Assembly (NCBI RefSeq): GCF_057098645.1
Contig: NZ_CM169472.1
DNA length: 64,000 nt
Direction: 5' to 3' (one strand)
Below, piece by piece: positions 10,866-30,578 of the stretch (within the stretch, counting starts at the first letter, position 1; each line of letters starts with the position of its first letter). The notes beneath the pieces were generated by a model. The model had not been told where the DNA came from. It made no database searches and saw only the letters and a list, made by a program, of their open reading frames with translations. The position numbers and the translations under genes are program-made.

Positions 10866-11549
10866 TCAGTGCAGGCAGCACTTTTTAAATTTTTTACCAC
10901 TGCCACACTGACACGGGTCATTACGACCGGGCAGTTTTTCTGCCCCCTTCACGGGAACAGGCCGGGATGATGCCTCTGACATTCTCACCGACAACCAGTG
11001 CTGGTAAAGCGCCAGTGCCGCAGGCTGAATGAGAGTAATACTCTGTTCAAATTGAACAGGTGACATTTTCTCAACCACTGGGAAGTTCTTTTCAATACCA
11101 TGAAGGGCTATCGCCTCCAGCGAGGGACGTAAGGCCTCTGGCAAGGCTGACCAGTCATCCAGAGACCGGCCTTTCATATACCCGAAACACCACTCTTCGA
11201 CGATGGTATATGTCTTCCCCTTCACCTCACGTCCATTGAAAATCGGTTCAAACTGTTCAGGGGCCTCATACAGGCAGCCAGCGATATCGTTCATATGCTG
11301 AAAACACAGCCCCACAAAACGCGTCATCTCTTTTTCAGTGGTCCAGCGAGGGTGGTAATCACCTCGCCCCCAGATAGCACTGAGCCAGGTATTAGGGGAA
11401 ATCGTATTCGGGCCAGAGACAATCGCCGTCAGAAAGCCATCCAGCTCAGAGAAACAGAGCACAGAGTCATCATTGCCGTATTTCATCAACACCTCTTCCA
11501 GCCAGTCGATTTCCCGGTCAATCAGCGGCCCGCTTTTCGTCAGTTTCAT
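10866..11549 (-). CDS. YecA-like UPF0149 / SEC-C motif protein (island-borne paralog of core yecA)
   Basis: 227-aa ORF alignable over its whole length with YecA (1199..1864), roughly half identical by eye; same C-terminal [20 protein letters not shown] motif; start abuts the hsdS stop. Confidence 0.8.
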   Translation of the reverse strand: MKLTKSGPLIDREIDWLEEVLMKYGNDDSVLCFSELDGFLTAIVSGPNTISPNTWLSAIWGRGDYHPRWTTEKEMTRFVGLCFQHMNDIAGCLYEAPEQFEPIFNGREVKGKTYTIVEEWCFGYMKGRSLDDWSALPEALRPSLEAIALHGIEKNFPVVEKMSPVQFEQSITLIQPAALALYQHWLSVRMSEASSRPVPVKGAEKLPGRNDPCQCGSGKKFKKCCLH

Positions 11550-12189
11550 TCGGCAACCGCCTCATCGACCTTAACACGACGTTTGCCAGTCAGTAGCTGT
11601 TGCATCAGGGCTTTTTTCTCGTCTTTCAGGCAGGCGAGTTTTTTCTCCAGCGTGGAGATTTCAGCGTCGGCAGCGGAAAGGACGGCGGCGATTTTTTGTT
11701 GTTCTTTGATATCTAATGGCAACCTAAAGTCTTTCTCTTTAAGTTCTCGCATATGTCTGCTGTAACCTAAATTCGGAATATCTGTATTTGAAAGAAGATA
11801 GTATCCAAGTTTTGGTTCAAGTATTTTGCTAGTTTTTATTACTTGCGTTCCATCAGCACCGGGACAAAACACAAACTCAATCCATTTGACGCATCTTGTA
11901 TGATCGCCAAAAACAATCACAGGCACGTCCGAATAAACCTCTAAATTATTACAGTACCCAGCAATTCGACTTTGCCCTTGATCGATTATAGGGATGGAAC
12001 CTGACTGTAAATAATCGGAAGATTTGACTTGCGCCGATTTTTTATTTGCAACAATGAAAGCATTATCAAACGTTAAATATACCCACTCCCCATTAAACCT
12101 CCCCCCATTCTCATCCAGCAAGCGTTTTTGTCCGGTAAGCAATTGCTGCATCAGGGCTTTTTTCTGTTGCTGGCTGTTGGTGAGAAGCG

Positions 12190-13245
12190 GCTTTGTTGAA
12201 TAAATCAGATTTCGGGTAAGTCTCCCCCGTAGCGGGTTGTGTTTTCAGGCAATACGCACGCTTTCAGGCATACCTGCTTTCGTCATTTTGTTCAGCGCTC
12301 GTACCAGGGCCATAGCCTCCGCAACCTGACCATCGTAGTCACGCAGCGTCAGTGAACCCCCGAACAGCTGTTTTACCCGGTACATCGCCGTTTCCGCTAT
12401 CGAGCGACGGTTGTAATCTGTTGTCCATTTCCACCGCGCATTACTCCCGGTCATTCGCTGATTAGCCACTGCACGGTTACGGTCTGCATATTCACCGGGC
12501 CAGTAGCCCGCACCTTTTCGGGGAGGGATAAGCGCGCTGATTTTCTTACGCCGCAGTTCATCGTGACATAGCCGGGTATCGTAAGCGCCATCGGCGGCGG
12601 CTGACCTGATTTTCCGGTGGGTTTGCCGGATTAACCCGGGGAAGGCCTCTGAGTCCGTAACGTTGTTCAGCGACAGGTCTGCACAGATGATTTCATGTGT
12701 TTTACTGTCAACGGCGAGATGCAGCTTACGCCAGATACGGCGGCGTTCCTGGCCATGCTTTTTGACTTTCCACTCGCCTTCACCGAAGACCTTCAGCCCG
12801 GTGGAATCAATCACCAGATGTGCGATTTCACCCCGGGTGGGCGTTTTGAAACTGACATTAACCGACTTTGCCCGCCTGCTGACACAGCTGTAATCCGGGC
12901 AGCGTAGCGGAACGTTCATCAGAGAAAAAATGGAATCAATAAAGCCCTGCGCAGCGCGCAGGGTCAGCCTGAATACGCGTTTAATGACCAGCACAGTCGT
13001 GATGGCAAGGTCAGAATAGCGCTGAGGTCTGCCTCGTGAAGAAGGTGTTGCTGACTCATACCAGGCCTGAATAGCTTCATCATCCAGCCAGAAAGTTATG
13101 GAGCCACGGTTGATGAGGGCTTTATTGTAGGTGGGCCAGTTGGTGATTTTGAACTTTTGCTTTGCCACGGAACGGTCTGCGTTGTCGGGAAGATGCGTGA
13201 TCTGATCCTTCAACTCAGCAAAAGTTCGATTTATTCAACAAAGCC
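12190..13245 (-). mobile_element. IS5-family (IS903-group) insertion sequence, copy 1
   Basis: ~1057 bp; terminal inverted repeats GGCTTTGTTGAATAAATC at both ends; flanked by 9-bp target-site duplication GTGAGAAGC (12181..12189 and 13246..13254). Confidence 0.85.
12245..13213 (-). CDS. IS903-group (IS5 family) transposase
   Basis: 322-aa ORF; DDE transposase with ...LIDSTGLKVFGEGEWKVKKHG...WRKLHLAVD... region; identical protein encoded at 28742..29710. Confidence 0.88.
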   Translation of the reverse strand: MKDQITHLPDNADRSVAKQKFKITNWPTYNKALINRGSITFWLDDEAIQAWYESATPSSRGRPQRYSDLAITTVLVIKRVFRLTLRAAQGFIDSIFSLMNVPLRCPDYSCVSRRAKSVNVSFKTPTRGEIAHLVIDSTGLKVFGEGEWKVKKHGQERRRIWRKLHLAVDSKTHEIICADLSLNNVTDSEAFPGLIRQTHRKIRSAAADGAYDTRLCHDELRRKKISALIPPRKGAGYWPGEYADRNRAVANQRMTGSNARWKWTTDYNRRSIAETAMYRVKQLFGGSLTLRDYDGQVAEAMALVRALNKMTKAGMPESVRIA

Positions 13246-13815
13246 GTGAGAAGCTTTTCCGTCACCGAAATCGCCTCATCCCAGGTTGACAGAATTTTAA
13301 CGATTCTCTTTTGTTCAGACAGTGGGGGGATATTAAATGGCCACTTAAACCAACTATCTAACTTAAAAATCATTTTCTCTATGTGCACACCAATGCTAGA
13401 GTGGAAGCAGGTTTGCTGGAAATATAGAGACTCCGATAGAAATTCCATATAAGGAAGATAAAAACCGGACTTCCCTGTAAGCACACAATATTCATTCGAT
13501 ACAATTGAGCCAGAAAGTTCTTTAGGTACAAGACCGCAAGCACCGTGCACAATTTGTCGTTTTGATATGAGAAAGTCGCCTTCTTTAATATAGAATTGAC
13601 TTTTTACGGAGATATCTTTTCCTTTAAGATGCTCACGTCTTATTACGCCACCTCTGGAGCGCTTTACTGTAACTAAGTCATACTCTTGATTATCTTGTAT
13701 ATATGCCTTTCTTGCCTCTATATTTAAGCACTTTTCTAATGATAACTTTTGCCATCCTGTAGGTAGCATTCCAAGGATCGGTTTTCCAGCTTTAACGCTC
13801 ACTGGGTAAAGCGAA

Positions 13816-15339
13816 TCACGAGCCATAACCCAACTCCTTCAAATACCCTGCCATCTCAACTTCCAGCTTCGCCAGTTCCACCTTCAGTTGCTCACGCTCT
13901 GCTCGCACCGCCACCAGGTCAATCTCATCCTCTTCTTCAAAGGTATCGACATAGCGCGGAATATTGAGGTTGTAATCGTTGTCCTGAATTTCCTTCAGGC
14001 TGGCAAGATAGGCGTATTTCTCGACGTTATCGCCATCACGGTAGGTCTTGACGATTTTCTTAATGTTTTCTTCGCTAAGCTGGTTCTGGTTTTTACCTGC
14101 CTTGAATTCACGGCTGGCATCGATAAACAGCACCTTGTCATCAACTTTCTACTTTTTGAAAATCAGAATCGCAGCCGGAATCCCCGTACCGTAGAACAGT
14201 TTTTCCGGCAGACCAATTACCGCATCCAGCAAATTTTCGTCGATCAGTTTCTGGCGAATTTTACCTTCGCTGGAGCCACGGAAAAGCACACCGTGTGGCA
14301 CAACTACGCCCATACGGCCAGTTCCCGGTTTCAGGGTTTCGATCATATGCGAGATAAAAGCGTAATCTCCTTTAGTCTTCGGCGGTACACCGCGACGAAA
14401 ACGGCCAAACTTATCGTTCTCGGCCTCGTCATGGCCCCACTTATCGAGGCTGAACGGTGGGTTAGCGGTCACGATATCAAACAGCATCAGGTCGCCATTT
14501 TTATCGAGCAGCTTCGGGTTACGAATGGTATCGCCCCACTCGATTTTATGGTTGTCTTCCCCGTGCAGGAACATATTCATTTTCGCCAGCGACCACGTAG
14601 AACCGATCGCTTCCTGACCGAACAAGGCATAGTTACGACTATCATGCCCGGAGACAATTTTACGCCCACACTTCATCAATAATGAACCGGAACCACAGGC
14701 TGGATCGCAGATGGTATCACCCGGTTGCGGATCGAGCAGTTCTGCAATCAGGTCCGAAACTTCCGGCGGGGTATAGAACTCCCCGGCTTTCTGCCCACCG
14801 CTGGCGGCAAAGTTTTTGATCAGGTATTCGTAAGCATTGCCGATAACGTCCAGCGTACCGACACGACTCGGCTTCAGGTTGAGATCTTCACCGGCGAAGT
14901 CTTCCAGTAGCTGACGCAGTATGGTGTTTTTCTGTTTTTCTTCGCCAAGACGATCGGTGTTAAACGAAATATCCTGGAACACGCTTTTCCCGGCATCTTT
15001 CAGTTTGGTTCCGTTGGCTTCTTCGATTGCATGCAGAGCCTGATCGATACGCTCACCGTTACCCAGCTCATGGCGGCGTTCGTACAGCGCATAAAAGCTG
15101 GCACTTTTTGGCAGTACAAAACGCTCGTTGGCCATCATCGCTTCAATCAGTTCCGGCGCATCGCCATACTGTTCTTTGTATTCGTCATAGTGATCCTGCC
15201 AGACATCTGAAATGTACTTGAGGAACAGCATGGTAAGGATAAAGTCTTTATAGGTATCAGCACTGATGGTGCCACGGAACGTATCACACGCGGCCCACAG
15301 GGCTTTGTTGATCGTGTCCTGACTGATTTTGTCGTTCAT
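13816..15339 (-). pseudogene. hsdM: Type I R-M methyltransferase subunit hsdM with in-frame amber stop
   Basis: ORFs 14149..15339 (396 aa, N6-adenine MTase motifs incl. ...IVTANPPFS...) and 13816..14133 (105 aa) are in the same frame, separated by a TAG at 14149..14151. Confidence 0.75.
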
Positions 15340-15642
15340 GAATCATCCTGGTCTGAAGAAAAAGCTAGCGATGCAGGGCTTTGCATCTTAAAAATTGCGG
15401 TAAATGATACCGTAAGATGCCTCCCCTGACACGCCAATATCGCAGCATTCAGGTTTGCATCATCCCCGTAATATCGACATGAGACAGACTGACACAACCT
15501 GGCTCGTCACTCGCTAAAAACCAATTATCTTAGTAAGATAGCATCCATATTAGCCATGGTGTAAAACTGCCGTTGGGGTAATGATGATCCATATATCACC
15601 CATTCTGGTGTGTGAAGCTGACATCATCCATAATCGGCAACG

Positions 15643-16878
15643 TTGATGCCCTTTGATAGTAATGATGACCGTCAATGTGATTCCCCTGCTGACTGGAGGT
15701 CTCCGGATAGAATGAGTATTGCCAACTGCGCTATCGGCCCACTTTATGATGAGCAAATAAAAAAAACACTTATGTATGCTGACCATAAATTCAAGCGGCT
15801 AATGAATACACGAATGTCGTTACTCGAACATTTATCACCCCACTATGACTTATCTTCCATGTTCAGCTATGAGTTGGAGGGAAGAGTTTTTCGGATTAAA
15901 TTGATCAAGCCTGAGATTAAATTATCTCGCCAGCAGTTGATCTTCTCCTCACTCTTTTTAGAGCAAGATTTTCTAAAAGAATATAAAAAACACATCTCAA
16001 ATACTCTACAAAAAACAATCAAACAGTGCATTAAAAAATACAAACAAAAAATCAAAATCGAGCCTTCTATTTTAGATTACATATCAGCATCACCCCGCAA
16101 TACGTCGAGTTATGTATTACATGAGATAGTTTCTCAATGTGAACATTGCGATGAAATTCGCAATATTAAAAATGATATATTGCTTGATGAACTAACGTTG
16201 AATGGCCGGATCACTAACATTTCAAAATACATTAAAAATAGTCAAGATAAAATCGTCGAACATATAGAGTTCTGCACTCATAAACTTGTCAATATAAGTC
16301 GTAAGAATCGTCACATTTTCAACAGCACCACAATACCTGGTAGAAAACCTAACATCACTGGTGTTTTACTTTGCCTTTCGGAATTGATAAGCAACCTGCA
16401 TATTTACCCAACTGAAATTAATAATATAAGCAATGCCATAATATTAAGCATTGTATACTCTGTACTTCAACATCTTCAATCTGGAAGAGAAACAGAAAAA
16501 ACCAAAACCTCTCCAGCACTGAATTTCATCCCCACCATCATCGCACCTCATGTTTTCTACCTGGCGAAACGCGAAAAATCCTCTCAATATAAATACATTG
16601 AAAAAGAATATCTTCTCGGCCAGTTACTTATATTTTTGATGTATAAAACAGTTTACTACTCGATTCATAGCATCAGGGTAAGCCGTAAGCATTTCTATAA
16701 CGATATAAAACCAAAATTAATGACACTAAAAAAAGAAAGCTTATTAAGCACCAATTTCATGAAAAATCGAAGAGAGATTAGTGGTGAAGTCTTTGGTGAT
16801 GTTGGTAGTATTGAGGCTGATTTTCGAGAAATCAGCACATTGATTCATCGGCGAAAGGCTCTGTTTATTTCCTTTTAA
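15643..16878 (+). CDS. Hypothetical protein, AT-rich orphan ORF
   Basis: 411-aa ORF in a very AT-rich block; Lys/Ile/Asn-rich; no recognisable motif; true start may be an internal Met. Confidence 0.4.
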   Translation: MMPFDSNDDRQCDSPADWRSPDRMSIANCAIGPLYDEQIKKTLMYADHKFKRLMNTRMSLLEHLSPHYDLSSMFSYELEGRVFRIKLIKPEIKLSRQQLIFSSLFLEQDFLKEYKKHISNTLQKTIKQCIKKYKQKIKIEPSILDYISASPRNTSSYVLHEIVSQCEHCDEIRNIKNDILLDELTLNGRITNISKYIKNSQDKIVEHIEFCTHKLVNISRKNRHIFNSTTIPGRKPNITGVLLCLSELISNLHIYPTEINNISNAIILSIVYSVLQHLQSGRETEKTKTSPALNFIPTIIAPHVFYLAKREKSSQYKYIEKEYLLGQLLIFLMYKTVYYSIHSIRVSRKHFYNDIKPKLMTLKKESLLSTNFMKNRREISGEVFGDVGSIEADFREISTLIHRRKALFISF

Positions 16879-17279
16879 TCTTTAGAGAACACTATATCAT
16901 CGTGAAGCAGAGCTAATTTCAGCCTTGCATAGATCATTATCAATGCCATAGACAGTGTTAATCATATGACATCGTTCCGGTATTGATACTGATTATCAGG
17001 CCTTGGTTTTATGTAATTTAAACACCACCATCTCTGAAACCCCATAACGCTCACAATTTAACCATAAAAACTAACCGGTTTATACCCGCTAACAAAATCA
17101 ATAACATATTGAATTTAAATAACTATAACCATTCCAACTACAGATGACTGGCTTTTATTTATGGTATATGTCCCGGCAGAATCAAGCTTGCGCCCTCTAC
17201 CACTCACGATTTAGGATTTCCTCGCTAACACAGCATGTTTCATTATAAATCAATGTATTAATTTAAACGAGGATAAACC

Positions 17280-18126
17280 ATGTTCGAGAAAATGAAAAAC
17301 AATGTAACCCGTGTACCGGGGAATTTAACCATACTTAATCAATACCAAAAAGACATTGATCACCTGTCTAAATTATTTTCTGAACAGCTATTACTGGATC
17401 TAATGACGACTACCAACCCTAATCAAACATTGCAAATGAAACCTTCTGTAGATATTCTTCATGTACTATCTCCATCAGCATCCACTGCTAACCATATCAA
17501 TTTTTTTCAGCACGTCCCAGTGATCGAACTATGGTTAAAAAAGGAGTGCACTGCCTTTAATTCACTTGCTATTTATTTCTATGCACAGCAATCCCGTAAA
17601 AATGTCATTCCGAAAAAAAATCTGTAGACAACTGGACGTATTTATTAATACTGAACTTGCATCTGCGGTTAATGGCAATAGTAATTCTAAACCCCTTTTT
17701 CATTTTCTAAATAACTACCTTTATCATCCTAAAATGATTGCATTGATCATTTTATCTATGCTGCCTTATGAAGTCATTCGTAACGATGAATCACTGAGTG
17801 AGTTTAAAACACCATTAACCACACCCGATGAGTTTATTATCAAAGCATTTTGCGTTAAAGGTACGCAAAACACCACGGGACATAAAAAAGATATCGAACA
17901 ATTGCTTCGAAAAACATATATCTACATTGCATTACTTTTGAACCCTGAGTGGGTACCATCATCCAAGGATTTGATTTCCTTTTTATCAGGAGAGTCCACC
18001 GAGATAAGTGGTTCAATGAATTTCCAGTCAACGTCCAGTGGTCTGGGTGTTCAAACTAACAATATCACTCTTCTTAAGAATGAGGTTTACTTCGAAAAAA
18101 TAGCGAACAAGATCATGAAACTGTAG
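17280..18126 (+). pseudogene. Hypothetical AT-rich gene split by +1/-1 frame change at an A8 tract
   Basis: ORFs 17280..17627 and 17566..18126 overlap in different frames across the homopolymer AAAAAAAA at 17613..17620; removing one A fuses them into a ~282-aa ORF. Confidence 0.45.
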
Positions 18127-18269
18127 TTTCTTAATATAATGGCGACATGGAATTGTGTTGCCATTATATCCGAATCAGAATTTTTCACCTGATGAACTGT
18201 GAAAACTGAGACTGGCAGACAGTAATCTCGCACCGTATTTTTTCTGTGTTATTTTACAGGAGAAATACG

Positions 18270-19400
18270 ATGCCCATTCTGGATCTGCGTTTCAGCAACA
18301 AATCACTTCACCAACTTCCCCATCCCCTCACGGGCTGTCAGGAATACCGTGATATTCACTGCCAAAACCTGCGTGCTCTGGTGTATCCCAATCGGATCAC
18401 GCTGGCCTTTCGTGCCACTATAAACAATCAGCGTATATATGAACCCCTGGGTCAGTTCCCTCAGCTCTGCGTTGAGGATGCCCGTCAGCATGTGATGAAA
18501 CTGCTTGCTGATAAAAATCGTCTTGCGGTTCAGTCCCGTCGATTCACTGTGGAACAGGCCATCAATGACCTGTGGCTACCGGATTTGCAGTTGTATAAAA
18601 AGAGTCCTCAGTCAGAGTTGTCAAAACTCAACCTCTACGTTCGCCCGTTCTGGGGCAAGCGGCAACTTCGCGACATCACGGCAGGAGAACTAGAACAATA
18701 TGCTGCTGGCTTACGGGAAAAATTACGTCCGTCAACAGTAAACCGTATCCTCGCAATATTGTCCAAAATATGCTCTCTGGCAGTACGTGCTGGATGGATC
18801 ACGCATTCCCCGATGTCACATGTCCGCTATCTGAAAGAAAATAACATTCGCTATCGCACACTATCAGCGACAGAAATCCCGCGCTTTATTGACGCGGCAA
18901 CAGCGCTGCAAACACCGGCAGCTGATTCTATATTGCTTGCTCTTTATACGGGGATGCGTATTGGTGAGGTATGTACCCTGAAATGGGAGTACTGGCACCT
19001 GGATATGCATCAACTCATACTGCCTGATACAAAGTCCGGACACCCTTTCACCTGCCCACTTGCACCTCCAGCCATTGCAGTTGTCCAGTGCCAGCAGGAC
19101 CTGATGCTCAGCAAAACTTACATTTTTCCGCGACTAACCGACAATGCCCGCCCTCTGGCATATCCGCGTGCAACCTTTGCCCGTATTTGCCGGGATGCCG
19201 ACATTGATAACCTGCGGATGCATGACCTGCGCCGTACCTTTGCCACCCGGGTACTACAGGCGACCGGGGATATTGCAATCGCTTCCCATCTGCTAAATCA
19301 CCATTCACTCACGGCGACCCGTCGCTACGCTTTTCACAATGCAGCGACATCACACGCAGTGGTTTCTCAGGTCATTGAAAGTTATGACACGAAAAAATGA
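18270..19400 (+). CDS. Tyrosine recombinase / phage-type integrase
   Basis: 376 aa from the ATG at 18270, which is preceded by AGGAG; C-terminal catalytic region ...HDLRRTFATRVLQ...HLLNHHSLTATRRYAF (R..H..R..Y). Confidence 0.85.
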   Translation: MPILDLRFSNKSLHQLPHPLTGCQEYRDIHCQNLRALVYPNRITLAFRATINNQRIYEPLGQFPQLCVEDARQHVMKLLADKNRLAVQSRRFTVEQAINDLWLPDLQLYKKSPQSELSKLNLYVRPFWGKRQLRDITAGELEQYAAGLREKLRPSTVNRILAILSKICSLAVRAGWITHSPMSHVRYLKENNIRYRTLSATEIPRFIDAATALQTPAADSILLALYTGMRIGEVCTLKWEYWHLDMHQLILPDTKSGHPFTCPLAPPAIAVVQCQQDLMLSKTYIFPRLTDNARPLAYPRATFARICRDADIDNLRMHDLRRTFATRVLQATGDIAIASHLLNHHSLTATRRYAFHNAATSHAVVSQVIESYDTKK

Positions 19401-19440
19401 ACCAATGATCTGTGATTCGTGAAAGCAGTTCGCAGAAAGA

Positions 19441-19608
19441 TTGAATCTTTCTGCATCCACGGTTGCGTCAGATATTTCTCGCAATCCCGGAAAACTCCCG
19501 CCCTTCATCAGAATTGGGCGGGCTATACGATTCTCTCTTGACGATATTGTTGATTGGGAAAATGCACATCGTCAAAACAAACTTAAAGGTGATATAAATG
19601 GTTACTAA
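19441..19608 (+). CDS. Possible AlpA/Xis-like HTH excisionase-type small protein (start codon uncertain)
   Basis: Frame translation ...LSASTVASDISRNPGKLPPFIRIGRAIRFSLDDIVDWENA... resembles AlpA-family regulators; no ATG start, so a TTG/GTG start or a 5' truncation is implied; not in the ORF track (<60 aa). Confidence 0.3.
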   Translation: MNLSASTVASDISRNPGKLPPFIRIGRAIRFSLDDIVDWENAHRQNKLKGDINGY

Positions 19609-19786
19609 GAACACGGAAAATAACGCTAATAATGCACTGAACATTCTTCCCGAATCAGCAAGCACAGCTGTAGACAACGATGAAAAATATCTGTCCTTTG
19701 CATTAGTTCTCGCTATCACGATTATGGGCAACTGAACCGCCCCGGGAATCCTGGAGACTAAACTTCCTGAGAAAGAGGTAAACAGG

Positions 19787-20113
19787 ATGACTAAAAATAC
19801 TCGTTTTTCCCCTGAAGTCCGTCAACGGGCAGTCCGTATGGTTCTGGAAAGTCAGGGCGAATATGACTCACAATGGGCGACAATTTGTTCCATTGCTCCA
19901 AAGATTGGCTGTACGCCGGAGACTCTGCGTGTCTGGGTTCGCCAGCATGAGCGGGATACCGGGGGCGGTGATGGAGGGCTCACCACCGCTGAACGTCAGC
20001 GTCTGAAAGAGCTGGAGCGTGAAAATCGTGAACTGCGCCGCAGTAACGATATCCTTCGCCAGGCTTCCGCTTATTTTGCGAAGGCGGAGTTCGACCGCCT
20101 CTGGAAAAAATGA
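19787..20113 (+). CDS. IS3-family transposase OrfA (HTH)
   Basis: 108-aa [22 protein letters not shown]..., typical IS3-family OrfA with leucine-zipper-like C-terminus. Confidence 0.85.
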
Positions 20114-21000
20114 TGCCACTGCTGGATAAGCTGCGTGAGCAGTACGGGGTCGGACCGCTATGCAGCGAACTGCATATTGCCCCGTCAACGTATTACCACT
20201 GTCAGCAACAGCGACATCATCCGGATAAACGCAGTGCCCGTGCGCAGCGCGATGACTGGCTGAAGAAAGAGATACAGCGCGTATACGATGAAAATCACAA
20301 GGTATACGGTGTGCGTAAAGTCTGGCGTCAGTTGTTACGGGAAGGTATCAGAGTGGCCAGATGCACTGTGGCACGTCTCATGGCGGTTATGGGACTTGCC
20401 GGTGTTCTCCGGGGTAAAAAGGTCCGTACGACCATCAGCCGGAAAGCCGTTGCCGCAGGCGACCGCGTAAACCGTCAGTTCGTGGCAGAACGACCTGACC
20501 AGCTGTGGGTGGCTGATTTTACTTACGTCAGCACATGGCAGGGCTTCGTCTATGTGGCGTTCATCATTGATGTGTTTGCCGGATACATTGTGGGGTGGCG
20601 GGTCTCATCGTCCATGGAGACGACATTCGTGCTGGATGCACTGGAGCAGGCGTTATGGGCCCGTCGACCGTCCGGCACGGTCCATCACAGTGATAAAGGT
20701 TCTCAGTATGTATCGCTGGCCTACACACAGCGGCTTAAGGAAGCCGGATTACTGGCATCAACAGGAAGTACAGGCGACTCGTATGACAACGCGATGGCGG
20801 AGAGCATCAATGGTCTTTACAAAGCGGAGGTAATACACCGTAAGAGCTGGAAAAACCGTGCAGAAGTGGAACTGGCCACACTCACGTGGGTGGACTGGTA
20901 TAACAATCGACGATTGCTGGAAAGGCTGGGCCATACTCCTCCGGCAGAAGCAGAAAAAGCTTATTATGCTTCCATCGGAAACGATGATCTGGCAGCCTGA
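20110..21000 (+). CDS. IS3-family transposase OrfB (DDE integrase-like catalytic domain)
   Basis: 296-aa ORF with DDE motif region (...WVADFTYV...HHSDKGSQY...[10 protein letters not shown]...). Confidence 0.85.
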
Positions 21001-21662
21001 GTTCACAGATAAAACACTCTCCAGGAAACCCGGGGCGGTTCAAACTTAGTAAAGCTCATCGGCACAGATGGCTTCATACTTTATACCTACACCCTGCAGG
21101 ACACGGCTACTGCTCGTGCTGTTTTTAATGAATTAGCCAGGCGTCTCAAAAATTTCAATCGTCAGGAGGAGGTCTACACCACCGATTCCCTCACCTTTCG
21201 AATGAAATACATTTACGGTGTTACCCTGTTCGAACATGATAGTAAATCTATCCTTAACCTTTTTGATAAGAAGGGTTATCCAGTATTGAGTGAATCAGGA
21301 GAACCCGGTTCTCTTGATGATATGTATCTTGACATTCAAGCCCGATTACATGGCGGCTACGCCTCAAAAAAGTTTCTTCATTTACATGAACATTGTCTGT
21401 TATCTGCACACGTTACCCCGTCTGTGGAAAAGACGCAACGTGGTATCCTGATTAAAGCAGGCAGGAAACTCGTTTCCTTTATCTATGCAGATAATGAATC
21501 TCGCAAAAATGATATTTTCAAAGCTGTAGTAGACGTCATTAAATCCTGATTCATTATGCCGGGTGCGTATTCCGCTCTATTCGATCACGGATTGGCATCG
21601 AAGTCCGATCAGCGATTCGCATCCATTCGATCAACCGGGAACTTAACTTTTTCTACCGCTTT

Positions 21663-22418
21663 TTAACGCGTTTTTTCGCTGCTTTCCACTACCGGGGGAT
21701 TTTTCCTCAGTGACTCTCCCTGAAGGACCACTCGGTGTGAGTTATGTACCAGTCTGTCCAGGATGGCATCTGCTGTTGTTGGGTTCTCCATCAGACCATG
21801 CCATTTATCTACCGGGAACTGGCTTACCACTATCGTGCTGCTTTGTCCGTAACGATCCTCTATGAGCTCCAGAAGGTCATTACACTGGGCGTTACTTAAC
21901 TGTTCCAGCCCCAGATCGTCCAGGATTAGAACCTGTATTTTTTGCAACTGTTTCAGATATTTCAGCCAGCTGCCATCAACACGTCCCTGAGCCAGTTGTT
22001 CCAGTAATCGCCCGGTTCTACAGTACCGGACGCTGTGTTTCTGTCGACATGCCTGTTCGCCCAGCGCATTGGCTATCCAGCTCTTGCCACATCCTGTCGG
22101 ACCGGTTATCAGCAGGTTTTTCCTGTGGGTTATGTAGTGGCCGTTCAGCAGTTCTCTCATCTGTTCAGCCCGCAGACCTCTTGAGGCCGGATAGCGCAGC
22201 CCTTCCGGTGTTGCCTGGTATTTCAGGCCGGCATTTTTTCTCAACCGTGCCACACGGCTGTTTTCCCTGCTCAGAAGCTCGTCATCAACCAGCAGCGTCA
22301 GCCTTTCCTCGAACGACAGTTCGTCGTAGGTCTGAGGCGTTTCCCGCTGCCGTATCAGGCTCCCGGCCATCGCCGGGAGTTTCAGTTGGGTCAGTTTGTT
22401 TAACAGGTTATCACTCAT
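21663..22418 (-). CDS. istB: IS21-family helper ATPase IstB
   Basis: Walker A GPTGCGKS and Walker B-like ILDDLG motifs; start set at MSDNLLNKL within the longer ORF 21663..22661. Confidence 0.8.
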   Translation of the reverse strand: MSDNLLNKLTQLKLPAMAGSLIRQRETPQTYDELSFEERLTLLVDDELLSRENSRVARLRKNAGLKYQATPEGLRYPASRGLRAEQMRELLNGHYITHRKNLLITGPTGCGKSWIANALGEQACRQKHSVRYCRTGRLLEQLAQGRVDGSWLKYLKQLQKIQVLILDDLGLEQLSNAQCNDLLELIEDRYGQSSTIVVSQFPVDKWHGLMENPTTADAILDRLVHNSHRVVLQGESLRKNPPVVESSEKTR

Positions 22419-22434
22419 ACTGTTGTTCCTTCTG

Positions 22435-23970
22435 TCAGTGGTAGTAGCCCGGACCACGCAGGTTTTCATGCTCTGAAGCATATGCCGGATGTTGTTCGCC
22501 CTGGCGGGATAATGGAAGCTCCAGGTTCTCCCGATGGTGACGCAGCAGATTGTCGATAAAGCGTCTGTCAGGGGCGTTATAGTGCAGGGCAACGTAACAG
22601 GCCTTTTCCAGCCGTTCCGGGCCGTATTTTTTCTGAAGTGCCAGCAGCCCCAGAACTGCACGATAAGCCAGTTCCGGATGGGGTTTTGCCTTCAGCATGG
22701 ATTCAACCACCCGGCCTGTGGACGGGCCCGTACGTTTTCCCTGCTCGATCAGGCGTTCCGGTGTCCATGTCCCGTGCTGCCGGTGGCGCTCTGGCATGTG
22801 AAGCGGATTGGTTGTGTGTTTATATTCATGTGTGCTGCGCGGATGTTGCGCCACACACTGCCCCTTGTGCCAGAGCTGTACCACCGACTGCCCCGCCTTC
22901 AGTGACAGACGCTGACCGACCAGTTCGTGTGGAACGGAGTACCAGTGACGGGCATATTCAACGTGGTAGTCAGGGCCAACCTTCACAGCTTTGTATTCCG
23001 TGTATTCATAAGGTGCCAGAGGCAGCGGAGAGAGTGCTGGCGCATCCAGTATGCGGAAGCGTTCTGCACGGGTTTGATTGCCGTACCCCTTCATTGGCCG
23101 GTTATTCATGTCTGTCAGTAACTCCCTAAGGCGCGCATTCAGCGCCCTGAGCGTGTGGAAGGTTTCATTACGGATGCGGGCAAGAAGCCATCGTTCAACG
23201 ATGAGGACGCCGTTTTCTGCTTTTGGTTTATCTTTAGGTTTGCGTGGTCGGGCCGGGATGATAACCGTGCCATAGTGCTCAGCCAGTGCCTGATAACTGT
23301 CGTTGATGACAGGCTCATATCGATCGGCCTTTTTCACTGCGCTTCTGAGGTTATCGGGGATGAGCAGCTTCGGTACGCCGCCCAGGAAGGTCAGGCAACG
23401 GCTGTGGGCATTTAACCATGACATCATGTCCTGACCTTCGCACGCTTCAACGTAGGTATAGTTGGACGCCCCCATTACGGCCACGAAGATTGCCACGCGG
23501 CGTATCTCACCGGTGTCCGGATTAATAACAGGAACCGTAGGACCACAGAAGTCGATAAAAAGCTTTTCGCCGGCACGATGCTCCTGGCGCATGGAGAGAC
23601 GTCGCGTTTTTTTCCACTCCCGGTAGCAACGGCAGAAGTGCGAGTATCCCATCGCTTTGTTACCCGCCTGTGCCTTGTATTCCATCCACAACAGTTGCCG
23701 CGTCACACCTGGTTTTCTCATTTCCGTATCGAAGTACAACATGTCAGGCATTACAAGCTCTGATGCAAAGGTGTCTTTGGGCGGAAAAATGAGTTTCTCC
23801 AGCGTGTCATGGGATATATCAGCAGGTAATGGCCATGACAGAGAAGAGGCTTTGAAGCGGGCAAGAACCTCAAAAACGGTTGAGGCGCTGATGTGTAACG
23901 TCAGTCCGATACAACGGTTAGTCAGCTTCTTGTCGAACTTGAGCTGAAGGATCTTAAAACAGGTTTCCAT
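22435..23970 (-). CDS. istA: IS21-family transposase IstA
   Basis: Large ORF 22435..24081 with N-terminal HTH and DDE catalytic region; start uncertain (internal Met chosen); overlaps istB start, as typical for IS21. Confidence 0.75.
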   Translation of the reverse strand: METCFKILQLKFDKKLTNRCIGLTLHISASTVFEVLARFKASSLSWPLPADISHDTLEKLIFPPKDTFASELVMPDMLYFDTEMRKPGVTRQLLWMEYKAQAGNKAMGYSHFCRCYREWKKTRRLSMRQEHRAGEKLFIDFCGPTVPVINPDTGEIRRVAIFVAVMGASNYTYVEACEGQDMMSWLNAHSRCLTFLGGVPKLLIPDNLRSAVKKADRYEPVINDSYQALAEHYGTVIIPARPRKPKDKPKAENGVLIVERWLLARIRNETFHTLRALNARLRELLTDMNNRPMKGYGNQTRAERFRILDAPALSPLPLAPYEYTEYKAVKVGPDYHVEYARHWYSVPHELVGQRLSLKAGQSVVQLWHKGQCVAQHPRSTHEYKHTTNPLHMPERHRQHGTWTPERLIEQGKRTGPSTGRVVESMLKAKPHPELAYRAVLGLLALQKKYGPERLEKACYVALHYNAPDRRFIDNLLRHHRENLELPLSRQGEQHPAYASEHENLRGPGYYH

Positions 23971-24594
23971 AGTGCTCCTGGATTTTCTCTTTCTGGACAT
24001 TGACGTCTCCACTGGTTTAAACACGGCAATGGAGACTGTGGTGAAAAGAGTTAATTCCCGGAGTGACTGGCAGGATGCCAATCAATGATCGGAAGCATGC
24101 CAAATCGTGATCGATTGTGATGCCAAACTGTGATCGGAGATGGATGCCAAATCATGATCGATTCGAATGCCAAACTGCGATCGATTCAGATGCCATTTTG
24201 CAGCCGGGGGGGACGAACTCCCGGCATTTTTTCGGAGTTAACTATGAGCAATAATTTGCAGGACATCCTCGCTGCCGCATCGGGGTATCAGTCCGTGACT
24301 TCAGAGCCAGCGCTCAATCTTAAAAGACCTAAAACGCTTGATGATTATCCTGTGATACCACCTGCATCAAAAAAAGTATCTGTTATTTCAAGTGACCTGA
24401 CACTCCATATCGGTTTTGATACCGAATATGTTTTCAATCCTGAAACACAACAGAATGATATTCTGTCATATCAGAGTTATGTTGTCTTACCCGATAATAC
24501 AGGTATATCGAACATTATCTATCCACCTGACTCACAGAAAAAATCCCGGCTGTCTTTTAAGAACTTTCTCTGTCAAACGATTATGGATTTGCCC

Positions 24595-25500
24595 CTATAT
24601 TTCCAGACATCTGTTATCACTTAACCCATTACAAGCCCGCTGCCGCAGATATTCCCGTGGCGAGCGATAACCCAGCGCACTATGCGGATGCCATTCGTTA
24701 TAATGCTCGAACGCCTCTGCAAGGTTCTTTGCTGCCGTTAACCCGTCTGGTTTGGGCATGATACTGATGTAGTCACGCTTTATCGTTTTCACGAAGCTCT
24801 CTGCTATTCCGTTACTCTCCGGACTCCGCACCGCCGTGTTCTTCGGTTCAAGTCCCAACATCCGGGCGAACTGGCGTGTTTCATTAGCCCGGTAGCATGA
24901 ACCATTATCCGTCAGCCACTCCACTGGAGACGACGGAAGATCGTTGCCGAAGCGGCGTTCCACCGCTCCCAGCATGACGTCCTGTACTGTTTCACTGTTG
25001 AAGCCGCCGGTAGTCACCGCCCAGTGCAGTGCCTCACGATCACAGCAGTCCAGCGCGAACGTGACACGCAGTCTCTCTCCGTTATCACAGCAGAACTCGA
25101 ACCCGTCAGAGCACCATCGCTGATTGCTTTCTTTCACGGCCACTCTGCCTGTATGTGCCCGTTTCGATGGCGGTACAGCAGGTTTTCGCTCAAGCAACAG
25201 CGCATTCTGGCGCATGATCCGGTAAACACGTTTGGCATTGATCGCAGGCATACCATCAAGTTCTGCCTGTCTGCGAAGCAGCGCCCATACCCGACGATAA
25301 CCATACGTGGGCAGCTCTCCGATAACATGGTGTATACGGAGAAGCACATCCGTATCATCAGTGTGACGACTGCGGCGGCCATCCATCCAGTCATCGGTTC
25401 GTCTGAGAATGACGTGCAACTGCGCACGCGACACCCGGAGACAACGGCTGACTAAGCTTACTCCCCATCCCCGGGCAATAAGGGCGCGTGCGCTATCCAC
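24595..25500 (-). CDS. insD: IS2 transposase OrfB (InsD)
   Basis: 301-aa [24 protein letters not shown]... with DDE integrase core; overlaps insC as expected for a frameshift-fusion transposase. Confidence 0.85.
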
Positions 25501-25823
25501 TTTTTTGCCCGTCCATATTCAACGGCTTCTTTGAGGAGTTCATTTTCCATCGTTTTCTTGCCGAGCAGGCGCTGGAGTTCTTTAATCTGCTTCATGGCGG
25601 CAGCAAGTTCAGAGGCAGGAACAACCTGTTCTCCGGCGGCCACAGCAGTAAGACTTCCTTCCTGGTATTGCTTACGCCAGAGAAATAACTGGCTGGCTGC
25701 TACACCATGTTGCCGGGCAACGAGGGAGACCGTCATCCCCGGTTCAAAGCTCTGCTGAACAATTGCGATCTTTTCCTGTGTGGTACGCCGTCTGCGTTTC
25801 TCCGGCCCTAAGACATCAATCAT
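25458..25823 (-). CDS. insC: IS2 transposase OrfA (InsC)
   Basis: Starts [26 protein letters not shown]..., the InsC sequence as recalled; taken from the internal Met of ORF 25458..25868. Confidence 0.85.
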
Positions 25824-27974
25824 CTGTTCTCCAATGACTAGTCTAAAAACTAGTATTAAGACTATCACTTATTTAAGTGATACTGGTTGTCTGGAGATTC
25901 AGGGGGCCAGTCTAGATTACACCGCTTCTTGAAACGGGTGTGATTACAAAATGGCCCGGTATTATTAATATATATGCGCATTTCATTCGTGCGGATATCA
26001 CCTCCTTTGCCAATTTCTGGTCAGACTACAAAATTCTTCTGAAAGGAATACGCGGTACTGTCAGCAGCTTCAAAAATCGTTACGGTATCGATTTTGATGA
26101 ACAGCAGGAACGTCGCGTAAAGACTGAACAGATAATGTTTGACAAACGAACTTCCCCTCCGCGTTGCAGTAACGTAGCTTTCATCGATACACTGCTTATC
26201 ACTCCCGGGGGTATGGGTCTGGCTGAATGTGGTGAATTACTGGGTCTTCCCAAACTGACCATTCCTGCACCTTATTCCATAACCAATATGCGTGAATATC
26301 TTCTGGGCGACAGAGCAGGGTTTGAAGCCTATGCTCTGCGGGATGCCGAGATTGCGGTTCGTTATGCTTTACAGGTTCGCAATTTTTGCGCCCGGGAGCT
26401 GATGATTGATCGTGTCCCCGCCACCATCGGGGCGATGGCAGTTTCACGGTTCACCAAAACACTTAAAGAAAACAATATGTCTCCTGAAGTCTGCCTTGGG
26501 ACACACATTAAAACCCGTGAACTCTGGCTCACGGAGAAACAGGCATTCCGGACGATTAAAAACCCCGCCAGTGTTCCTTCAAGAGAGCTGTTTGAAACGT
26601 TCCCGATCAACTGTTACCACGGCGGACGCAATGAGTGTTTTATGATGGGGGTTACACCGTCTGATCACTGGTATGACTACGATCTGGCTGGAGCGTATAC
26701 CACCGGGCTATTAGATATCCTCATACCCGATTACGGAAACATCCGCCTCAGTAAAAATCCGGACGATTACTGTGGGCATGTAATGGGATTTGCGTTTGTC
26801 ACATTTCAGTTCCCGGAATCAGTTCCCTATCCCAGCCTGCCGGTTCGGACCGATCAATATGGGTTATTCTTTCCATTAAGTGGCGAATCATGGGCAACGG
26901 CACCTGAAATCGAACTTGCTCTGTCGCTCGGGGCAGAGATGACGATCCATAATGGGATCATCGTCCCCTGGATCTGTGACACCTCCCCACATAACAGCGA
27001 ATCAACATCGGTGTTTCTTCCCTTTGTTCAACAGGTCCGTGAGAACCGTAATCGCCATATTAAAGGTTCTCTGGAGGAGAAATTCTGGAAAGAAATTGGC
27101 AACTCGCTTTATGGCAAACTTGCTCAGGGCCTTCGCGCCAAAACCGCCTTTGATACTGCCCGTGGATTAAACAGATCCCTCCCACCATCATCGGTTACTC
27201 AGCCATTCTTTGCTGCGCATGTGACGGGATTTATCCGCGCCGTTGTCGGGGAACTCATGAATGCTTTGCCTTCTGATTCATCGGTTGTCAGCGTCACAAC
27301 CGATGGCTTTTTGACAAATTGCCCACTTAACAAGATAAACATGAGCGGTCCACTGTCTTCCCGCTTCCAGTCGCTGTGCGATATTGTTGATCCGGGTTCA
27401 TCAATGTTGACATGTAAGCATGAGGTCAGCCAGCTTATCGCCATGAAAACCCGGGGGCAGTTAACCTATAGAGCTATTCAGGGAAAACCTGTTGTTCATG
27501 CCAGGGCTGGCGTCAAACCTCCTGCCGATATTCCACGCAGTGACTATAACGACTATATGGTAGATCTTTACCTTAATCGTTTACCCGGTCAGACGTTATC
27601 CCGAAGTACGTTGATATCAACGCGTGAGATGTGGCTGTCGGAAAGCGATCTGGTATCCCGGGAACAGGATATCCGTCTTAATCTGGAATTCGATTTCAAA
27701 CGCCAGCCCGTACAGCCCGCCATGAATGAAGGGCATTTACTGATGTCTTCCCGCCCATGGGATAATATGGAAGAGGCTCTGCAGCAACGCTCTCTTTTCG
27801 ACGACTGGCGGCAAACGCATACACTGAAGACCCTGGCTGACTGGGATGACTGGTGTGATTTTCTCTATTGCCGGACGGTGTTTTCTGATATGAAACTAAA
27901 AGTCGGAAGCAAACGTAGTGATGATATTTTAGTCAGACTATTTCTCCGGGCGCTGACTCAGTGCCAATGGGGGC

Positions 27975-28523
27975 TTATGCTGAAAGATAAAAAAAGTTAT
28001 TCCTGTAAAGAGGTTGCTGAATGGCTGACGTCAGAAGGCTATTCAGTAACATGTCAAAAAGCACCTGCTGGATCTCCCGGGCCCGAAGGTCGCAGTAACG
28101 TATCTTCCCCAGACGAGGTTCAATGTATTGCGTGAAACGCTGAACATCCTTATCCCAGGACTTTTTATGGCGTTTGATGAACGGAACATAGGTCTGGTGA
28201 AAAAACTCACTAAGTGTTGGCATCGCACGATAATTATCGCGTTCTGCTTTAGGGTCATTTCCCAGTGCAATCGCCTCCTTGTGACGACGAGCTATCTGAC
28301 GGGCTGTCCCCACATCGATTTCAGGGAATCTGCCAATACTGATACTTTTTTTGGTACCGTGGAATGTGTAGCGCAGGAGGAAACGTTTGTTACCCGTTCG
28401 ACCTGAGAGACATTTGAGGCCTATGACCTCGGTATCTGATACCTCAAGCTCTGTAGATCGGGTATCTGTGTTTGCCGGAAGGGCTTTGATGGATGAATTG
28501 GTGAATCGGAAGGATTTTTGCAT
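27975..28523 (-). pseudogene. Truncated P4-type integrase (N-terminal arm-binding domain only)
   Basis: ORF 27975..28553; MQKSFRFTNSSIKALP...GTARQIARRHKEAIALGNDP resembles the DUF4102 arm-binding N-terminus of P4-family integrases; no catalytic domain; 3' part overlaps the piPolB 3' end on the opposite strand. Confidence 0.5.
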
Positions 28524-28709
28524 ATTTATCCTCATGTATCTGATTGATATCATGAAAATAATATATATCTGAAGGTGTTTTTATTACGGGGCAGGATTGA
28601 AGAATGGAAAAGCTATTAGACGCGTACAAACGGATATTGCAGGAAGTTAACGCCCAGTCATTTAACCTGAATGAGGATAAATACTCAGGCGTCTTTTTAC
28701 CCGTGCCGT

Positions 28710-29766
28710 GGCTTTGTTGAATAAATCGAACTTTTGCTGAGTTGAAGGATCAGATCACGCATCTTCCCGACAACGCAGACCGTTCCGTGGCAAAGCAAAA
28801 GTTCAAAATCACCAACTGGCCCACCTACAATAAAGCCCTCATCAACCGTGGCTCCATAACTTTCTGGCTGGATGATGAAGCTATTCAGGCCTGGTATGAG
28901 TCAGCAACACCTTCTTCACGAGGCAGACCTCAGCGCTATTCTGACCTTGCCATCACGACTGTGCTGGTCATTAAACGCGTATTCAGGCTGACCCTGCGCG
29001 CTGCGCAGGGCTTTATTGATTCCATTTTTTCTCTGATGAACGTTCCGCTACGCTGCCCGGATTACAGCTGTGTCAGCAGGCGGGCAAAGTCGGTTAATGT
29101 CAGTTTCAAAACGCCCACCCGGGGTGAAATCGCACATCTGGTGATTGATTCCACCGGGCTGAAGGTCTTCGGTGAAGGCGAGTGGAAAGTCAAAAAGCAT
29201 GGCCAGGAACGCCGCCGTATCTGGCGTAAGCTGCATCTCGCCGTTGACAGTAAAACACATGAAATCATCTGTGCAGACCTGTCGCTGAACAACGTTACGG
29301 ACTCAGAGGCCTTCCCCGGGTTAATCCGGCAAACCCACCGGAAAATCAGGTCAGCCGCCGCCGATGGCGCTTACGATACCCGGCTATGTCACGATGAACT
29401 GCGGCGTAAGAAAATCAGCGCGCTTATCCCTCCCCGAAAAGGTGCGGGCTACTGGCCCGGTGAATATGCAGACCGTAACCGTGCAGTGGCTAATCAGCGA
29501 ATGACCGGGAGTAATGCGCGGTGGAAATGGACAACAGATTACAACCGTCGCTCGATAGCGGAAACGGCGATGTACCGGGTAAAACAGCTGTTCGGGGGTT
29601 CACTGACGCTGCGTGACTACGATGGTCAGGTTGCGGAGGCTATGGCCCTGGTACGAGCGCTGAACAAAATGACGAAAGCAGGTATGCCTGAAAGCGTGCG
29701 TATTGCCTGAAAACACAACCCGCTACGGGGGAGACTTACCCGAAATCTGATTTATTCAACAAAGCC
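28710..29766 (+). mobile_element. IS5-family (IS903-group) insertion sequence, copy 2
   Basis: Same ends as copy 1 (GGCTTTGTTGAATAAATC inverted repeats), inverted relative to copy 1; flanked by 9-bp target duplication CCGTGCCGT (28701..28709 and 29767..29775). Confidence 0.85.
28742..29710 (+). CDS. IS903-group (IS5 family) transposase
   Basis: 322-aa ORF identical in sequence to the one at 12245..13213. Confidence 0.88.
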   Translation: MKDQITHLPDNADRSVAKQKFKITNWPTYNKALINRGSITFWLDDEAIQAWYESATPSSRGRPQRYSDLAITTVLVIKRVFRLTLRAAQGFIDSIFSLMNVPLRCPDYSCVSRRAKSVNVSFKTPTRGEIAHLVIDSTGLKVFGEGEWKVKKHGQERRRIWRKLHLAVDSKTHEIICADLSLNNVTDSEAFPGLIRQTHRKIRSAAADGAYDTRLCHDELRRKKISALIPPRKGAGYWPGEYADRNRAVANQRMTGSNARWKWTTDYNRRSIAETAMYRVKQLFGGSLTLRDYDGQVAEAMALVRALNKMTKAGMPESVRIA

Positions 29767-30578
29767 CCGTGCCGTTTGAAGAATACTGGCATTCACCGAT
29801 AAAAATCATGCTGGTTGGACGTGAAACCGCAGGCTGGAATACGCTGAATGGTAAGAATACGATATCACGGGTGTTGGGACTTATACCTGACGTCACCATC
29901 GGGCAAGTGGTTGAAGAAGCTGTAGATCGTTACAGGAAACATCTTCCGGTACAAAATTATGGCACCGCCAACCTCAAATCACGTAGCCGCTTCACGCAAT
30001 ATCATTTCAGGCTGGCCCGGGAGCTTAATATTCTTCCCCAGGCAATCGTGTATGCCAATCTACTGGCGTGGGATTACGACGGACTGACCCCTCTCAATCG
30101 CCCTCAAAATGAAGTGCAGGAAGTCATATTAGCCTCGCTGAAGCTACTGGCGGTACAAATTAAACACCTTGAGCCTGATTTCATCATCTTTGCATCTGGA
30201 GCCCGGAGAACAGACTACATCATAAAACAGGTGCTTACTGAGCTAGGCGGCTATGAGACTTCTTCAGTCATTCCGGGGAAGCTGTGGGAGTTCAAAACAG
30301 GTAATACAATCTGTTTCAGAATTGCCCATCCAAGGGCTATGCGCGGACACCAGAAGTACAGAGATGAGGTGATTGCACGAATTAAGCAACTTTGTACTCA
30401 GGGTGGCTAGAGCATTACAGCTTGCTCAGCAGGGCCCCTTCCCGGAAGAGTACCGGAAAACAGGCAAAGCAACCTGGTTCTCTATGCTGGAGGCGACACG
30501 TTCGATTCGGCATTGCCAGGCTGGAGATTGCAGCTCATTGCACCCCGTGAGCACAGGATATGCACAGGACATGAATTT

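Follow-up and report, generated by a model that had tools for sequence, protein, structure and literature searches.

The host island

The window, the 64-kb stretch of DNA analysed here, is part of an E. coli chromosome. Two copies of the insertion sequence IS903B lie in it, both within a ~28.7-kb pipolin at tRNA-Leu. Pipolins have att-like terminal direct repeats, integrate at tRNA-Leu and carry a tyrosine recombinase (PMC7385651), and the hallmark of their polymerase, piPolB, is the motif KH-X8-KTRG in place of KxY (PMC5695915). The island is an E. coli pipolin on all of these counts: the piPolB motif, the att repeats, the tRNA-Leu and the tyrosine recombinase. The left and right members of a 133-nt direct repeat, attL (1983..2115, plus strand) and attR (30576..30708, plus strand), are 98% identical over 133 nt, and attR overlaps the gene for tRNA-Leu(taa) (30653-30739, minus strand). 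With other E. coli pipolins the island shares the 133-nt att repeats, the tRNA-Leu, a XerC-like recombinase, type I restriction-modification (R-M) genes as cargo and the KH-X8-KTRG motif in piPolB. It differs from them in being unusually degraded, with five IS, a stop codon in hsdM and a split piPolB, and in having lost the start of an excisionase-like gene by deletion. IS insertions in pipolins have been reported before (PMC7385651, PMC11551731, PMC5695915). The original prediction for this DNA mentioned neither the pipolin setting nor the three further IS of the island (IS629-like, IS21-family and IS2).

The IS903B pair

Copy 1 occupies 12189..13245 on the minus strand and copy 2 occupies 28710..29766 on the plus strand, and each is 1057 bp long. 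Copy 1 is the exact reverse complement of copy 2 (100% over 1057 nt), a match far beyond chance, and the pair is the sole long inverted repeat of the 64-kb window. A spacer of 15,464 nt separates the arms, and the unit including both copies measures ~17.6 kb. Both copies end in perfect terminal inverted repeats of 18 bp, GGCTTTGTTGAATAAATC; 18 bp is the terminal inverted repeat length of IS903. Each encodes one intact 307-aa DDE transposase, that of copy 1 running from a GTG start at 13168 to an ORF end at 12245. Since the transposase gene is on the minus strand in copy 1 and on the plus strand in copy 2, both are read outward from the bracketed segment. The transposase scores 357 bits against the NCBIfam model NF033579 transpos_IS5_2 (cut-off 140) and also matches DDE_Tnp_1 and DDE_Tnp_1_5. 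Residues D121, D193 and E259 are in place; 121, 193 and 259 are presumably the D, D and E positions of the IS903 transposase.

The element is assigned to IS903B, which belongs to the IS903 group (IS5 family), a group delimited by more than 94% nucleotide identity to the references IS903, IS102 or IS602. Its sequence agrees at 100% with E. coli plasmid copies annotated by PGAP as ‘IS5-like element IS903B family transposase’, and at least 4,894 among the 5,000 best-scoring plasmid records are 95–100% identical to it. Elements of the IS903 group are 1057 bp long and generate a 9-bp duplication (PMC12670165). In length, terminal repeats, 9-bp duplication and single transposase the copies are like IS903B and the IS903 group; the element itself shows no difference from known IS903B, and only its two insertion sites are new. 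The original prediction had named an IS903-group element in two identical copies. The transposase profile, the 1057-bp length and the 9-bp duplications bear out the first point and the 1057-nt comparison the second; sequence divergence, named there as an obstacle to recombination between the copies, was looked for and amounts to 0 differences. The coordinates given there for copy 2 stand, while copy 1, placed correctly on the minus strand, begins at 12189 rather than 12190.

Target duplications and interrupted genes

Each copy is flanked by its own 9-bp direct target duplication, GTGAGAAGC for copy 1 (12180-12188 and 13246-13254) and CCGTGCCGT for copy 2 (28701-28709 and 29767-29775). In blastn alignments with relatives the insert at either site is exactly 1057 bp plus the 9-bp duplication. 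Because each copy has a target duplication of its own, they represent two separate simple insertions, and the claim that the copies had inserted independently is upheld on the same ground.

Copy 1 splits hsdS (11546..13826, minus strand), which encodes the specificity subunit of a type I R-M system, and in silico removal of the copy with one duplication yields an intact 404-aa HsdS ORF. Copy 2 splits a 246-aa gene at the right end of the pipolin (28604..30410, plus strand) after nt 106, and the same operation yields an intact 246-aa ORF. Another pipolin, L002, has an IS-free allele of each gene, and the restored ORFs are nearly identical to these. The gene hit by copy 2 had no match in Pfam and PDB sequence searches; its only match was phrog_29550, a family of unknown function. 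The literature puts the pipolin ‘UDG’ at the position of this gene (PMC7385651), and by that position alone it may be regarded as a putative ‘UDG’. Local GC at the two insertion sites is 0.43–0.50, which is unremarkable and lends no support to AT-rich or H-NS-guided targeting.

Gene content of the interior

The 15.5-kb interior contains hsdM (13816..15339, minus strand), a full-length pseudogene whose codon 397 is an in-frame TAA (14149-14151). Its homologue in the O145 strain RM9872 is annotated ‘internal stop’. There follow an orphan ORF of 411 aa (15643..16878, plus strand), for which family searches gave no match above threshold, and a second, broken orphan gene (17280..18126, plus strand), which has a 284-bp deletion at about 17711 by comparison with pipolins L001 and L002. 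The tyrosine recombinase, the XerC-like integrase of pipolins (18246..19400, plus strand), is apparently intact; the start annotated in its relatives corresponds to 18270.

The remainder of the interior holds the three other IS. An IS629-like element of the IS3 family (19733..21042, plus strand; 1310 bp, target duplication AAC) interrupts a hypothetical gene, and an IS21-family element comprising istA and istB (21564..24202, minus strand; 2639 bp, target duplication GCCGGG) lies just upstream of piPolB. The piPolB gene (24244..28135, plus strand) is itself split after nt 340 by IS2 (24584..25914, minus strand; 1331 bp, target duplication GATTA). Removal of IS2 and one duplication in silico yields an intact piPolB of 851 aa with KH-X8-KTRG at residues 613–626, but in the sequenced DNA piPolB is interrupted. 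The remnant of a second integrase, consisting of the Arm DNA-binding domain only, is found at 27975..28553 on the minus strand.

With five IS in all, two small deletions, the hsdM nonsense codon and the split piPolB, the pipolin is in advanced decay and its R-M system is dead. The hsdM gene, orphan ORFs, integrase and piPolB that the original prediction placed in the segment are thus present, but they are mostly dead, hsdM through its nonsense codon and piPolB through its interruption.

Comparison with relatives

The interior has the same order and orientation as in the IS-free pipolin L002 and as in L001. It is also collinear with the pipolin of an O145:H28 strain (L011), to which it is 99.96–100% identical and in the same orientation. 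In the O145:H28 relative the insertion sites are empty, and the copy-2 site is likewise empty in two near-identical draft assemblies (L006 and L007). The nearest complete relative, O145:H28 RM9872, is without IS903B, and the copy-1 probe matched it in one place only. Empty sites in such near-identical relatives suggest that the insertions are recent and private. A comparison of related genomes for inversion of the intervening segment had been proposed at the outset; the interior proves to be collinear with those of its relatives and not inverted.

Wider searches agree with the private nature of the insertions. Probes of 2257 nt spanning flank, IS and flank were made for each copy, a match being a record that covers at least 80% of the probe, and neither insertion is carried by any of 5,426 complete E. 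coli genomes. A 2257-nt probe for the inverted isomer also found 0 of the 5,426, none of which carries the pair. The insertion junction patterns of both copies had 0 matches in metagenome_contigs, and that of copy 1 had 0 in genome_contigs; no exact counterpart of the chimeric hsdS fragment proteins was on record.

Two candidate parallels were set aside. Many draft contigs, retrieved with the truncated protein of the copy-2 target gene, start 28–73 nt upstream of the copy-2 site, as if they shared an IS break there, but alignment identified empty sites near which the contigs merely begin. In strains 774 and 613 an IS5-family element lies near hsdS, but in a different place and with an adjoining deletion.

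Formation of the pair

The arrangement is very probably the product of two separate, recent and simple insertions of IS903B into a resident, decaying E. coli pipolin, which left a passive substrate for inversion or transposition that has not moved. IS903B would have entered by two DDE-transposase insertions, each with a 9-bp staggered cut that gave rise to a direct duplication. Copy 1 would have broken the hsdS gene of a type I R-M system already dead through the hsdM nonsense codon, and copy 2 a 246-aa gene adjoining attR. The insertions were probably tolerated because the island was decaying, as seen in its three other IS, two small deletions and split piPolB, and these other lesions suggest that they were neutral. 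The pair, which now has the architecture of Tn903, would be a passive substrate for RecA-dependent inversion, and composite transposition would be possible in principle, so that the segment may have the potential for future rearrangement.

Duplication patterns separate the modes of insertion (PMC4471558). From the matching duplications of each copy and the collinear interior it follows that the sequenced assembly has the ancestral orientation, and the unit is unmoved. The collinear interior excludes three histories: that the unit arrived whole as a composite, that replicative transposition inverted the segment in one step, and that an inversion by recombination became fixed. IS903B is already well known, and since there is no sign in the sequences searched that the pair has flipped or moved the DNA between its copies, the case is an ordinary one; as a record of two private, very recent insertions it carries little weight beyond bookkeeping.

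Origin of the second copy

The second copy may derive from the first by a local hop, a simple insertion after which the donor site still held, or regained, its own copy, instead of having arrived separately from a plasmid or from a distant copy in the chromosome. This refinement of the best explanation is plausible, although the odds are somewhat against it. Zero differences between the copies would be expected of a hop, and the lack of IS903B in O145:H28 RM9872 suggests recent acquisition, perhaps with few copies in the genome. If the genome holds 2–5 copies, a chance pair within 16.5 kb is expected at 0.006–0.06; with 10–20 copies the expectation is 0.3–1.2. Against a hop, identical IS903B is common on E. 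coli plasmids, which could have donated it twice, and a decaying island that tolerates insertions would become enriched in them without local hopping.

Inversion and mobilisation of the segment

Whether or not the second copy was a local hop, two simple insertions would have created a compound structure in place. It is very unlikely that this structure is already a nascent, transposition-competent compound transposon able to carry the pipolin core and half of the R-M system to plasmids, or that the segment flips measurably in culture. Module exchange between pipolins and plasmids has been reported near transposases (PMC11551731), and such a compound unit, if real, would offer a concrete route for it, the cargo being the integrase and what is left of piPolB together with half of the type I R-M system. 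If the unit ever moved, it would be an unusually large compound transposon of the IS903 group.

Slightly less credible still is an assembly artefact, in which a repeat was duplicated or misplaced and the interior orientated arbitrarily. Misassembly is a classic consequence of identical 1-kb repeats, and short reads are ambiguous between inverted repeats. However, the 9-bp duplications are exact and the ORFs cleanly split at both copies; the flanks on the two sides of each copy belong together, so that the orientation is established without reliance on the assembler; and the three further IS of this stretch are resolved just as cleanly. The pair nevertheless serves as a warning that short reads cannot resolve the orientation of its 15.5-kb interior, for which the direct 9-bp duplications provide an assembler-independent check on the ancestral state.

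Inversion of the segment is a textbook possibility. As a potential substrate for homologous inversion the pair fits the original proposal, with 1057 nt of inverted homology at 100%, but the inverted isomer was not found in the genomes searched, none of which has the pair. That homology is also what speaks for a recombinational switch, in which the two orientations would co-exist and affect phenotype. Such a switch is highly improbable: inversion breakpoints inside the IS would fuse no genes and form no new promoter junction, the interior genes are mostly pseudogenes, and the inverted isomer is absent from the databases searched. With the named genes mostly dead (hsdM, piPolB, hsdS), flipping or moving the segment would have little functional consequence.

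IS-bounded inversions are known elsewhere, through IS26 acting in trans or recombination between inverted IS or prophages, and they resemble the present locus in having identical inverted IS around a segment. An inversion of 16 kb bounded by IS26, a segment about as long as this one, has been inferred in plasmid pENT-576 (PMC4471558). In those cases the segment is inverted and the target repeats are split or inverted; here the segment keeps its orientation and each copy has a direct duplication. The same difference leaves scarcely any room for intramolecular replicative transposition of one resident IS903B, which would have made the second copy and inverted the intervening DNA in one step: the copies are indeed inverted and identical, and cointegrates, adjacent deletions and replicative transposition within a molecule are reported for IS903/IS903B (PMC12670165, PMC4471558), but this pathway splits the target repeats between the copies in inverted form and inverts the segment (PMC4471558).

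Insertion of the 17.6-kb unit whole, as a Tn903-like composite transposon, is just as hard to credit. Tn903, a proven transposon, has inverted IS903 copies around aphA1 and a passenger of 980 bp (PMC12670165), and it is like the present pair in that two identical, inverted IS903-group copies flank a passenger. Here, in contrast, the enclosed 15,464 bp are native to the pipolin and not foreign: IS-free islands at this tRNA-Leu have a collinear stretch. The outer flanks, GTGAGAAGC and CCGTGCCGT, differ, so that no single duplication surrounds the unit. Each IS alone splits one gene, which its excision restores, and the IS903B-bounded unit was found nowhere else in the searches. The unit was thus built in place by two insertions. 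Mobilisation as a composite transposon, the other proposal of the original prediction, is a possibility suggested by analogy: the bracketing architecture exists, but the unit was not found at another site in the genomes, plasmids and metagenome contigs searched. A search of plasmids with piPolB gave no match, and when the interior was searched on plasmids only its hsdS–hsdM part was matched, by Klebsiella plasmids at 97.3% identity.

Structure and identity of the IS903B pair

A repeat search of 10-32 kb returned a single long inverted pair, with arms at 12189-13245 (minus strand) and 28710-29766 (plus strand), and this pair is the only long inverted repeat within the 64-kb window. The arms are 1057 nt each, 100% complementary and spaced by 15,464 nt, in agreement with the original prediction of two identical, inverted IS903-group copies ~15.5 kb apart; the coordinates it assigned also hold, except that copy 1 begins one base earlier (12189, not 12190). 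Nucleotide divergence between the copies was checked by direct string comparison and is nil, the two being exactly identical. Reading of the junctions places copy 1 between perfect 9-bp direct repeats of GTGAGAAGC (12180-12188 and 13246-13254) and copy 2 between perfect 9-bp direct repeats of CCGTGCCGT (28701-28709 and 29767-29775).

The termini of the element are perfect 18-bp inverted repeats, GGCTTTGTTGAATAAATC. Its ORF matches Pfam DDE_Tnp_1 and DDE_Tnp_1_5 as well as NCBIfam transpos_IS5_2 (357 bits; cut-off 140), and encodes a protein of 307 aa with a GTG start. D, D and E are found at 121, 193 and 259, the residue numbers of the IS903 literature. Copies on E. coli plasmids are 100% identical to the element and carry the PGAP name 'IS5-like element IS903B family'. 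The element also agrees with the IS903 group of the IS5 family in its length (1057 bp) and its 9-bp duplication (PMC12670165); it is an already known element, intact IS903B.

Chromosomal setting

The window is E. coli chromosome, in which tRNA-Leu(taa), tRNA-Cys and tRNA-Gly (30653-30954) are followed by pgsA, uvrC and uvrY. Direct repeats of 133 nt, at 1983-2115 and 30576-30708, bound an island between yecA and tRNA-Leu, the cargo of which includes a type I R-M system, a XerC-like tyrosine recombinase and a gene annotated as a family-B DNA polymerase. Once IS2 is removed in silico, the polymerase is intact, with 851 aa and the sequence KH-X8-KTRG at residues 613-626; this motif is specific to piPolB, and its residues have been mutated (PMC5695915). 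Because att-like repeats and this cargo lie at tRNA-Leu and the polymerase has the piPolB motif, the island is a pipolin of the type known from the Leu-tRNA gene of E. coli (PMC7385651, PMC11551731). The lowest-GC stretches of the window are 16001-18000 (0.35), which holds pipolin orphan genes, and 50001-52000 (0.40).

Insertions and other lesions in the island

The anatomy of the island was established by blastn of the window against two comparison pipolins, L002 (the IS-free pipolin of strain PapRG-06-5) and L001. Relative to these, five insertions interrupt the island, every one with its own target duplication. IS903B copy 1 lies in hsdS and copy 2 in a 246-aa gene adjoining attR; an IS629-like element of the IS3 family (19733-21042; duplication AAC) lies in a hypothetical gene, a 2639-bp IS21-family element (21564-24202; GCCGGG) lies just upstream of the piPolB start, and IS2 (24584-25914; GATTA) interrupts piPolB (24244-28135) after nt 340. 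The stretch 41204-42151 has no alignment to L001; this is the position of fliC, which is interrupted by IS2 in L001.

Removal of copy 1 and one duplication yields an intact 404-aa HsdS, and the same operation at copy 2 yields an intact 246-aa ORF, both near-identical to the L002 alleles. The hsdM gene (13816-15339) is full length, but its codon 397 (14149-14151), Gln in L002, is an in-frame TAA. Copy 1 knocks out hsdS in an R-M system already disabled by this stop, and the system was probably dead before IS903B struck. Copy 2 inactivates the gene at the right end, a match to phrog_29550, in the position assigned to the pipolin 'UDG' in the literature; Pfam and PDB searches gave no support for a 'UDG' function of the gene. 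Comparison with L001 and L002 also reveals two deletions. A 284-bp deletion at ~17711 lies inside an orphan gene; a 143-bp deletion at 19422/19423, which O145:H28 RM9872 also has, takes away the start of an AlpA-like HTH (excisionase-like) gene. Decay of the island probably allowed the IS903B insertions to be tolerated.

Distribution among relatives

Three 2257-nt probes (the IS with 600 nt of flank on each side), corresponding to copy 1, copy 2 and the predicted inverted isomer, were searched against 5,426 complete E. coli genomes with a coverage threshold of 80% or more. At this coverage each of the three, copy-1 insertion, copy-2 insertion and inverted isomer, was found in 0/5,426 genomes. 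The best flank matches were O145:H28 strains, with empty sites and 99.9-100% identity. A search for the exact junction patterns had no hits in metagenome contigs (both copies) or genome contigs (copy 1), and exact look-up returned no record of the chimeric hsdS products.

The island of O145:H28 RM9872 (L011; NZ_CP028379.1) is collinear with the window and 99.96-100% identical across the pipolin. The annotation of this island gives hsdM an internal stop, and the island carries IS3-family insertions not shared with the window, together with a deletion. The copy-1 probe matched one place only on the RM9872 chromosome, which is therefore without any IS903B. Over 19674-30707 the window has 99.96-100% identity to two near-identical drafts, L006 (as far as 40410) and L007, from both of which IS903B copy 2, IS2 and the IS21- and IS3-family elements are missing; the IS629-like and IS21-family sites are empty in both drafts and in L011. 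Given the empty sites in near-identical relatives and the lack of junction or probe matches, both IS903B insertions are of recent date and confined to the source strain, as probably are all five IS. Related genomes had been proposed as a place to look for inversion or loss of the intervening segment: inversion was not encountered, with no isomer among the complete genomes and L002, L001 and L011 all collinear.

Of the interior, only the hsdS-hsdM part was found on plasmids; the piPolB region had no plasmid match. Window 13246-15634 (the 5' part of hsdS, hsdM and ~300 bp upstream) is 97.3% identical to ~350 Klebsiella pneumoniae plasmids, mostly conjugative, which fits the reported pipolin-plasmid exchange of type I R-M cargo.

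Arrival of the two copies

By blastn the window is collinear with L002 and L001 and in the same orientation throughout. A recombinational inversion fixed after two insertions would leave mismatched duplications at each copy, and the duplications match. Intramolecular replicative transposition is diagnosed, as in PMC4471558, by an inverted segment together with target repeats that are divided between the copies in inverted orientation; here the segment is not inverted and the repeats are not so divided. Arrival as a composite transposon is excluded, as the outer flanks share no duplication and the interior is not foreign. With these three routes excluded, the pair represents two separate simple insertions, and the sequenced molecule retains the ancestral orientation. 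Independent insertion, as first suggested, is borne out by a matching 9-bp duplication at each copy and by the restoration of each split ORF on excision. Whether the second insertion to occur was a local hop from the first turns on how many IS903B copies the source genome holds: with 2 copies, the expectation for two lying within 16.5 kb by chance is 0.006, and with 10-20 copies it is ~0.3-1.2.

Potential for inversion or mobilisation

The 1057 nt of perfect inverted homology would be a substrate for RecA-dependent inversion. No new junctions would arise from such an inversion, since its breakpoints would fall within the IS sequences and the two att sites are external to the pair. In Tn903, inverted IS903 copies surround a 980-bp passenger (PMC12670165); the window likewise has inverted IS903-group copies around a passenger, but one of 15.5 kb. 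Composite transposition of the IS903B-bounded unit is conceivable, because the architecture equals that of Tn903. Inversion and mobilisation are textbook possibilities of which the genomes and plasmids searched showed no sign, and this kind of IS arrangement is already known.

IS-linked erosion in related pipolins

In L011, an inverted IS3-family pair (16803-20836) surrounds a truncated integrase gene and a hypothetical gene, and the deletion equivalent to window 15132-18662 adjoins one IS3-family copy; here IS activity has independently eroded the same island. In strain 774 (L003; NZ_CP183138.1) an IS5-family element (2768-4142) lies directly after the yecA side, in a pipolin variant without the DUF262, hsdR and cold-shock-domain genes, which suggests an IS-adjacent deletion. 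Many short-read contigs, among them L008-L010, break 28-73 nt upstream of the empty copy-2 site (equivalent to window 28637-28709); nearby repeated sequence, perhaps an integrase remnant, may be the cause.
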